Below, piece after piece: positions 789 through 1,313 of a stretch of 64,000 bases of DNA. The stretch is taken from assembly GCF_056712565.1 (NCBI RefSeq), contig NZ_CM160072.1. The stretch is one strand, 5' to 3'. Each line of letters opens with the position of its first letter. Positions within the stretch are counted from its first letter, which is position 1. The notes under the pieces are model-generated. The model was not told where the DNA came from and ran no database searches. It saw only the letters and a list, made by a program, of their open reading frames with translations. A program made the position numbers and the translations under genes.

Positions 789-1313
789 GGTCTGCCTGAT
801 GTTTGTGGAATCGAGGAGCATAGTATACCTGAAGCAGGCTGGGTGTGTTTTACGAAAGTTGTCGCGATGTTGACAAAAAGAGAATGAAAAAGAGGTCAGG
901 ACATCTTTGTAATAGAAATAGCAATAATTTCATATTCACTGAAAATATTTTTAATTTTTATTTATAGCCATAGATTATTGTTTTTGGGGATTTGGTGACG
1001 TTTCCAAAAAGTGAATAGCTTAAAGTTCATTGCTTATTGATACATTATTTGTCTGTTTTTGTTGTTTTATATTTTCATGGTCTATGTTTTAAAATTAACG
1101 CTTTCATTAACGTATTGAAATATTGTGTTTTTGTTATTTCTTTCTTTGTGTGTGTTCACGTGCTTTATATATGTCCGCAATCGGACTTAGGGGAAAGAAT
1201 AATTGAACCATTCCTCTATAACGCCGCATAATCGTAAACGCGAAACATAATATGTTTTCTATGCATTGATAATTGATGGATCAACTTATTACGTCCCTGA
1301 GGAGGGATGACAA

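Follow-up and report, generated by a model that had tools for sequence, protein, structure and literature searches.

A divergent regulatory region between hemB and the autotransporter gene upaC of Escherichia coli: an AT-rich spacer, very likely an H-NS platform, next to a conserved core promoter

Introduction

The closest described relatives of the region analysed here are the promoters of upaC in E. coli CFT073 and of yaiU in Salmonella Typhimurium. They belong to the same locus, yaiU (also named seaB) being the positional orthologue next to hemB, and both are reported to be repressed by H-NS. For upaC, one study (PMC5012682, citing Allsopp et al. 2012) places UpaC among the autotransporters of uropathogenic E. 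coli (UPEC) that are transcriptionally repressed by this protein, and by the same account upaC of CFT073 is reportedly derepressed in an hns mutant. For the yaiU promoter, direct binding of H-NS was measured by EMSA, ITC (Kd 0.29–0.46 µM) and ChIP-qPCR, and c-di-GMP was found to relieve it (PMC10657408). A genomic SELEX study of K-12 marked the neighbouring yaiU–yaiV spacer for H-NS and assigned a separate constitutive promoter to yaiV. EhaB is another name of UpaC, and two allelic forms are distinguished.

A comparable arrangement is known from the vat-vatX locus of CFT073, where an H-NS-repressed autotransporter gene is followed immediately by the gene of a small DNA-binding regulator that is proposed to compete with H-NS (PMC6956023). 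The gene downstream of upaC, iprA (yaiV), also encodes a regulator. IprA is described as a conserved protein that regulates oxidative-stress resistance and fimbrial genes.

Here we describe the 525-bp intergenic region between hemB and upaC in a stretch of E. coli DNA of 64,000 nucleotides, which we refer to as the window. We compare it with its counterparts in other E. coli strains and in other genera.

Results and discussion

A divergent regulatory region between hemB and upaC

The intergenic region spans positions 789–1313. To its left lies the 5' part of hemB (porphobilinogen synthase; 1–788, minus strand, start codon 786–788), which is a 100% match to the annotated hemB of ATCC 11775 and CFT073. 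To its right, the open reading frame of an autotransporter begins on the plus strand with the ATG at 1314 and opens with a signal-peptide-like N-terminus. These coordinates and gene calls agree with those of the initial annotation of the window, which had been made from the sequence alone. When positions 700–1400 were compared with the complete E. coli genomes by megablast, matches were obtained in 5423 of 5426, flanked by hemB and by a gene annotated as an autotransporter outer membrane beta-barrel domain-containing protein, as autotransporter adhesin EhaB or as an autotransporter YaiT-related protein. Across this interval the window matches the type strain ATCC 11775 at 100% identity. Every base of the spacer is the same as upstream of c0478/upaC in CFT073, and the autotransporter gene is therefore upaC (c0478). 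Positions 789–1313 are a divergent regulatory region between hemB and this adhesin gene, whose allelic names are ehaB and yaiT and which corresponds to yaiU/seaB of Salmonella.

Unlike its counterparts in CFT073 and Salmonella, upaC of this strain is interrupted. An IS2 insertion of 1331 bp (1971–3301, minus strand), bordered by a 5-bp target duplication (1966–1970 and 3302–3306), splits the gene after about codon 219. The 5' fragment (1314–1970, plus strand), which carries the RefSeq names EhaB, YaiT-related and autotransporter, is 100% identical to CFT073; the 3' fragment (3302–5637, plus strand), comprising the remaining passenger domain and the beta-barrel, is 99.9% identical. With upaC broken by IS2, what this strain has behind the silenced promoter is a pseudogene. 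A search of the 5426 complete E. coli genomes for the precise IS2–upaC junction gave no match. Independent insertions of IS3-family elements are present in the same gene elsewhere, at nt 1458 in K-12, at about nt 273 in MS10495 and at about nt 606 in 21AH004.

The region is very likely built of three layers: a hemB promoter block, an AT-rich H-NS platform, and the conserved core promoter and leader of upaC. The ~90 bp adjoining hemB would hold the promoter and leader of that gene. The ~290-bp spacer that follows, with 26% GC, would be a platform for the binding and spreading of H-NS. Bound there, H-NS would hold the adhesin promoter silent under ordinary conditions, and probably the AT-rich start of the gene as well; this step is taken over from what has been published for the same sequence in CFT073 and for the orthologue in Salmonella. 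The last 150 bp would form a compact core shared across genera, composed of a dyad, a sigma-70 promoter and a leader of ~75 nt. Expression presumably requires relief from H-NS, as brought about by c-di-GMP at Salmonella yaiU, together with a factor acting at the dyad.

The AT-rich spacer and H-NS

The GC content of positions 789–1313 is 0.331; the window as a whole has 0.512, and its hemB part 0.548. In a sliding-window calculation, just 0.23% of the 525-bp windows across the 64 kb reach so low a value, and the lowest of all (0.318) begins at 843. Tracts of at least four A or four T reach a density of 28.6 per kb, whereas the window averages 9.1 per kb; for TpA steps the frequencies are 0.086 and 0.046, respectively. 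The initial annotation had pointed out the low GC content and two A/T tracts, both of which are present (948–967 and 1057–1076). Its contrast with flanks of roughly 50% GC applies to the hemB side but not to the right flank, where the first 667 nt of the autotransporter gene have a GC content of 0.417. Low values of 0.37–0.45 are also seen in the passenger-encoding part of the gene.

The composition is most extreme in a core at 881–1172, the presumed H-NS platform (no strand), with a GC content of 0.257 over 292 bp; the edges are milder, with 0.467 at 789–880 and 0.376 at 1165–1313. AT-rich regions silenced by H-NS have a GC content far under the genome average over at least 100–200 bp, and 789–1313 shares this property. 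CFT073 has 27 annotated intergenic spacers of 60 bp or more in the adjoining 49 kb (mean GC 0.436), and of these the hemB–upaC spacer is the fourth lowest. Its low GC content is striking relative to coding DNA, but only moderately so relative to other long regulatory spacers. Two further spacers in the window are nearly as AT-rich, at ~12100–12650 and ~62720–63180 (minimum GC per 525 bp 0.335 and 0.347). Their position relative to CFT073 and their ORF content identify them as the ddlA–iraP and cyoA–ampG intergenic regions. A repeat search of the hemB–upaC region gave low-complexity A/T matches only.

A published high-affinity nucleation motif of H-NS is the 10-mer tCGATAAATT. Its best matches in the spacer, only two in number, carry two mismatches each (1037–1046 and 1271–1280). 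As a proxy for curvature, the periodicity of AA/TT steps was examined; there was none at 10–11.5 bp in the window alone, and a weak signal (z ~2.7–3.2 at 10.75–11.5 bp) when 40 related spacers were pooled. What the sequence contributes is therefore compositional: it identifies AT-rich DNA, not an H-NS site. Support for an H-NS-silenced promoter region, as the initial annotation had read it, comes from the published work on upaC in UPEC and on H-NS binding at Salmonella yaiU. Since the spacer is identical to that of CFT073, upaC is reported to be H-NS-repressed and H-NS binds the yaiU promoter, this reading is supported and was already known. An AT-rich, H-NS-silenced promoter before upaC/ehaB/yaiU is already published for the same sequence and is ordinary as a discovery. 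A literature search combining 'yaiT' with 'H-NS' returned no paper.

A mosaic of conserved and hypervariable blocks within E. coli

Comparison of the E. coli alleles reveals blocks of very different divergence. Positions 789–966 are 88–97% identical to the window, which is approximately the neutral level; the four-fold sites of hemB differ by 5–9% between the alleles. Positions 967–1164 are hypervariable, with 61–75% identity and a divergence of 3–5 times the neutral level. Identity in this block is 0.63 to K-12 and 0.73 to O157, compared with 0.93–0.95 at the hemB four-fold sites. Positions 1165–1313 and the signal peptide, at 94–99% identity, form a conserved island between two hypervariable blocks. 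The passenger domain is hypervariable (37–81%), its divergence, like that of 967–1164, being 3–5 times that of the hemB four-fold sites, and the beta-barrel is conserved (94–100%).

In the passenger (1600–4400), the allele of the window shares 74% identity with Enterobacter sp. ENT03 and 69% with Escherichia sp. MOD1-EC7003, but only 43% with an EhaB/YaiT-type allele from another E. coli (loci L010, L011, L055 and L040 were compared). The simplest reading that we infer from these identities is that the alleles may have been exchanged or may persist over long times, hemB and the barrel serving as recombination anchors, and that the island at 1165–1313 stays similar owing to a constraint that would act everywhere.

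Distribution across genera and the origin of the low GC content

To avoid conditioning on the autotransporter, a genome collection was scanned with HemB as the query, and the best 80 loci were examined. In 39 of these enterobacterial loci, belonging to more than 15 genera, hemB is followed by a long AT-rich spacer, the autotransporter gene, iprA and ampH. These autotransporter-bearing loci come from Escherichia, Citrobacter, Enterobacter, Lelliottia, Kluyvera, Pseudocitrobacter, Trabulsiella, Yokenella, Leclercia, Phytobacter, Superficieibacter, Intestinirhabdus, Huaxiibacter, Pluralibacter gergoviae and a Kosakonia. In about 20 of the best 80 loci (Klebsiella, Raoultella, most Kosakonia and some Citrobacter), hemB lies 100–160 bp from ampH.

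The whole spacer measures 389–617 bp in all 39 species and has a GC content of 0.32–0.38, with a value of 0.44 in Intestinirhabdus (59% GC). When the hemB block and the core promoter are subtracted, 173–383 bp remain, with a GC content of 0.20–0.43 and a mean of 0.28. Between genera, the spacers share no similarity beyond a few short marginal matches of 23–45 nt. The only substantial match is to an Escherichia sp. (L011), with 82% identity over the whole length. Judged from these alignments, composition and not sequence is what is conserved in the spacer. Because the arrangement is present in 39 species of more than 15 genera, the low GC content is a persistent property of a long-resident locus and not the scar of a recent import. 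That it is maintained while the sequence turns over is a caution against equating 'AT-rich' with 'recently acquired'.

Turnover of this kind would also be expected if the low GC content were unselected, that is, if unconstrained DNA had moved by drift to the AT-biased equilibrium that mutation sets in enterobacteria, with H-NS binding as a passive by-product. Drift would fit a spacer that is unalignable between genera and variable in length, that contains no strong H-NS motif or curvature signal, and that has several neighbouring spacers of similar GC content. We nevertheless consider it rather unlikely. A spacer of several hundred base pairs is retained in all 39 species with the autotransporter, against the short hemB–ampH interval where the autotransporter is absent. 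Within E. coli, positions 881–966 (GC 0.21) are kept at 92–97% identity, and the divergence of 967–1164 relative to the four-fold sites goes beyond what drift alone would produce.

A recently acquired genomic island, with a foreign composition yet to ameliorate, is improbable. It would explain why the low GC content runs on into the passenger-encoding part of the gene, why hemB stands directly beside ampH in Klebsiella, Raoultella, Kosakonia and some Citrobacter, and why passenger alleles are trans-specific. A recent acquisition would, however, be patchy within the species and its position empty in relatives, whereas the region is found in nearly every E. coli genome and at the same position in 39 species, and the identity of the barrel between genera (74–98%) tracks that of ampH. 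A 2026 preprint on the Salmonella orthologue SeaB agrees that the locus is long resident. The horizontal acquisition suggested initially thus fails as far as a recent import is concerned, but retains some truth in that the alleles look exchanged.

The hemB block and the 64-codon open reading frame

Under the favoured three-layer organisation, the hemB promoter and 5' UTR would occupy positions 789–880 (minus strand; GC content given above). The ~90 nt upstream of the hemB ATG are kept in all genera sampled, whether the neighbouring gene encodes the autotransporter or is ampH. A promoter scan of the block found no canonical -35 element; TATACT is a good -10-like hexamer. A conserved CTTTCGTAAAACA in the same block may be the site of a factor.

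The 64-codon open reading frame at 1037–1231 (plus strand) is not a gene. It has a TTG start and no Shine-Dalgarno sequence, and its frame is broken in 6 of 9 E. coli alleles, which departs from what is expected of a genuine small ORF, namely a frame kept among relatives, a start codon and a ribosome-binding site. The frame is open only in UpaC-type alleles (the window, CFT073 and 21AH004); the MS21-1, O157, K-12, MS10495, M37H and ET76 alleles carry 1–4 stops and indels of 1–2 bp in the corresponding columns. Its initial description as a compositional artefact is thus confirmed. That the region encodes a product of its own, be it this 64-aa protein, another small protein or a small RNA, can be dismissed as extremely improbable: the frame is open in the present allele, but it is broken in the other allele families, the curated annotation of K-12, small proteins included, has nothing in this spacer, an Rfam (15) scan of 600–1500 at E values up to 10 gave only a chance-level snoRNA match (snR39, 18.5 bits against a gathering score of 40, E = 2.2), and a terminator scan found no terminator-like site.

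A core promoter conserved across genera

To footprint the core, the last 180 bp before the ATG were aligned for 40 sequences. The predicted sigma-70 promoter of upaC (1203–1232, plus strand) consists of the -35 hexamer TTGAAC (1203–1208), an 18-bp spacer and the -10 hexamer CATAAT (1227–1232). The same combination was picked independently by a promoter scan; it matches the consensus at 9 of 12 positions, and its spacing falls within the 16–18 bp typical of sigma-70 promoters. Both hexamers and the 18-bp spacing are invariant in 40/40 sequences, and the sequence of the promoter spacer is variable. Transcription is predicted to start at ~1238–1241. A second promoter-like site, TTTATA-18-TAAAAT at 1066–1095, was rejected; it lies in the hypervariable block and is not conserved.

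Upstream of the promoter is the dyad GTCCGCAATCGGAC (1173–1186, no strand; GT-N10-AC), which is present in all 40 sequences and lies exactly 16 bp from the -35 hexamer in each of them. In this element, GTCCG-N4-CGGAC, the outer GT and AC are invariant across the alignment, and the inner changes are single-sided (GTCTG, CAGAC, CGAAC, CGTAC). Such single-sided changes are the pattern of a protein site rather than of a hairpin. The combination of dyad and promoter occurs only once in the 64-kb window.

Taken across genera, the footprint provides a precise and testable map of the adhesin core promoter, comprising the dyad, the hexamers and the leader hairpins. In the literature covered, namely the yaiU paper and the work citing upaC, the dyad, the invariant promoter geometry and the leader hairpins are not described.

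In Salmonella enterica subsp. diarizonae (locus L026, 6173–6630), the autotransporter gene has been deleted down to a barrel remnant of 41 codons. The dyad and the TTGAAC-18-CATAAT promoter are retained upstream of this remnant and now face iprA.

The leader and its hairpins

The predicted 5' UTR of upaC (1239–1313, plus strand) is ~75 nt long, and predicted leaders measure 60–85 nt across genera. Three elements can be distinguished: a possible 5' hairpin, a hairpin with GGA in its loop, and a hairpin at the Shine-Dalgarno (SD) sequence. The 5' hairpin would comprise 1242–1258. In most lineages the very beginning of the predicted transcript can fold into a hairpin, whose sequence changes from lineage to lineage and resists reliable alignment between genera; this recurrence is suggestive only. 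Further downstream, TTGAYGGAYMAAC (1273–1285) can form the short hairpin TTGA-TGGA-TCAA (1273–1284), which exposes GGA in the loop. The SD hairpin CGTCCCT-GAGG-AGGGATG (1292–1309) covers the ribosome-binding site, and its TCCCTGAGGAGGGATGAC is almost invariant; TCCCTGAGGAG(G)GAT is invariant across genera, with one G-to-C exception. RNAalifold retains the SD hairpin only, with 7 pairs and no covariation, because its columns do not vary.

Leaders bound by CsrA contain at least two GGA motifs, one of them at the SD sequence, and preferably placed in hairpin loops. The upaC leader shows this arrangement, with UGGA in the loop at 1277–1280 and GAGGAGGGAUG at 1299–1309. Both motifs are conserved, the GGA of the first being lost in L055. 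The likeness to the CsrA-controlled leaders of pgaA and glgC extends to the placement of the conserved GGA motifs, of which one lies in a 4-nt loop (UUGA-UGGA-UCAA) while another (AGGGAUG) overlaps the SD sequence, and to a gene product that promotes biofilm formation. Unlike those leaders, however, that of upaC has no more than two or three such motifs. Its conservation could be accounted for by the SD hairpin alone.

IprA and the candidate operator

The autotransporter gene is directly followed by iprA in 39/39 loci. In five loci iprA has been kept and the autotransporter lost (two Salmonella subspecies, Kluyvera intermedia, a Pluralibacter MAG and Phytobacter ursingii). In the window, iprA lies at 5723–6346 (plus strand), as annotated. 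A Pfam search of IprA places the winged helix-turn-helix domain HTH_46 above threshold and yields a weak, sub-threshold cNMP-binding match. An AlphaFold model (29 orthologues; pLDDT 86.7, pTM 0.77) resembles full-length CRP, Vfr, the c-di-GMP-binding CLP, NtcA and GlxR with TM values of 0.65–0.76 and E values of ~1e-9. For IprA as a whole, a complete fold of the CRP/FNR family is predicted with good confidence, even though the C-terminal winged helix is all that Pfam places above threshold. Its predicted recognition helix is invariant across genera, as are the GT and AC of the dyad.

Operators of the CRP/FNR type are two-fold symmetric over 14–16 bp and have conserved outer bases, features that the dyad shares. 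CRP recognises GTG-N8-CAC (half-site TGTGA), NtcA recognises GTA-N8-TAC, and the half-site of FNR is TTGAT. Like the sites in class I promoters of CRP, FNR and NtcA, the dyad is 14 bp long with GT and AC at its ends, here as GTC-N8-GAC. Relative to the predicted start it is centred at about -60.5, which is near the class I position, and its phasing to the -35 hexamer is fixed. It differs from the CRP and NtcA sites at the third half-site position, where C fits neither, and the FNR half-site does not fit. CRP itself was rejected as the binder, the half-site TGTCC being without the G of the CRP consensus TGTGA.

The dyad is a candidate operator for a dimer of the CRP/FNR type, and we tentatively suggest that this could be IprA. 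IprA, possibly together with a ligand, would then counter H-NS and activate the adhesin gene, and the GGA-containing leader would provide a further, CsrA-type control at the level of translation. The idea is drawn from linkage, fold and geometry, and we hold it with considerable doubt. If true, hemB–upaC–iprA would act as a self-contained switch for the adhesin that Enterobacteriaceae have conserved, and IprA would gain its first direct target and a binding motif; no IprA binding site is described in the papers searched. The proposal resembles what has been put forward for vat-vatX, with the difference that VatX is MarR-like whereas IprA has a predicted CRP/FNR fold, and that the link between IprA and upaC is a candidate one.

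The notion of a upaC–iprA 'operon', or of a tight functional unit, is weakened by the interval between the two genes, because in many genera the autotransporter gene ends in a classical terminator, a second conserved and covarying hairpin precedes iprA, and yaiV of K-12 has its separate promoter.

In the window, a perfect hairpin, ATGCCCGTCAA-GGAT-TTGACGGGCAT, is located at 5679–5704, after the stop codon of the autotransporter gene and before the start of iprA. Most genera keep it, with compensatory changes from U-A to C-G, and in several genera, though not in E. coli, a U-run follows. This hairpin may be a decayed terminator or an attenuator. The version of iprA annotated as a 222-aa ORF starts inside it.
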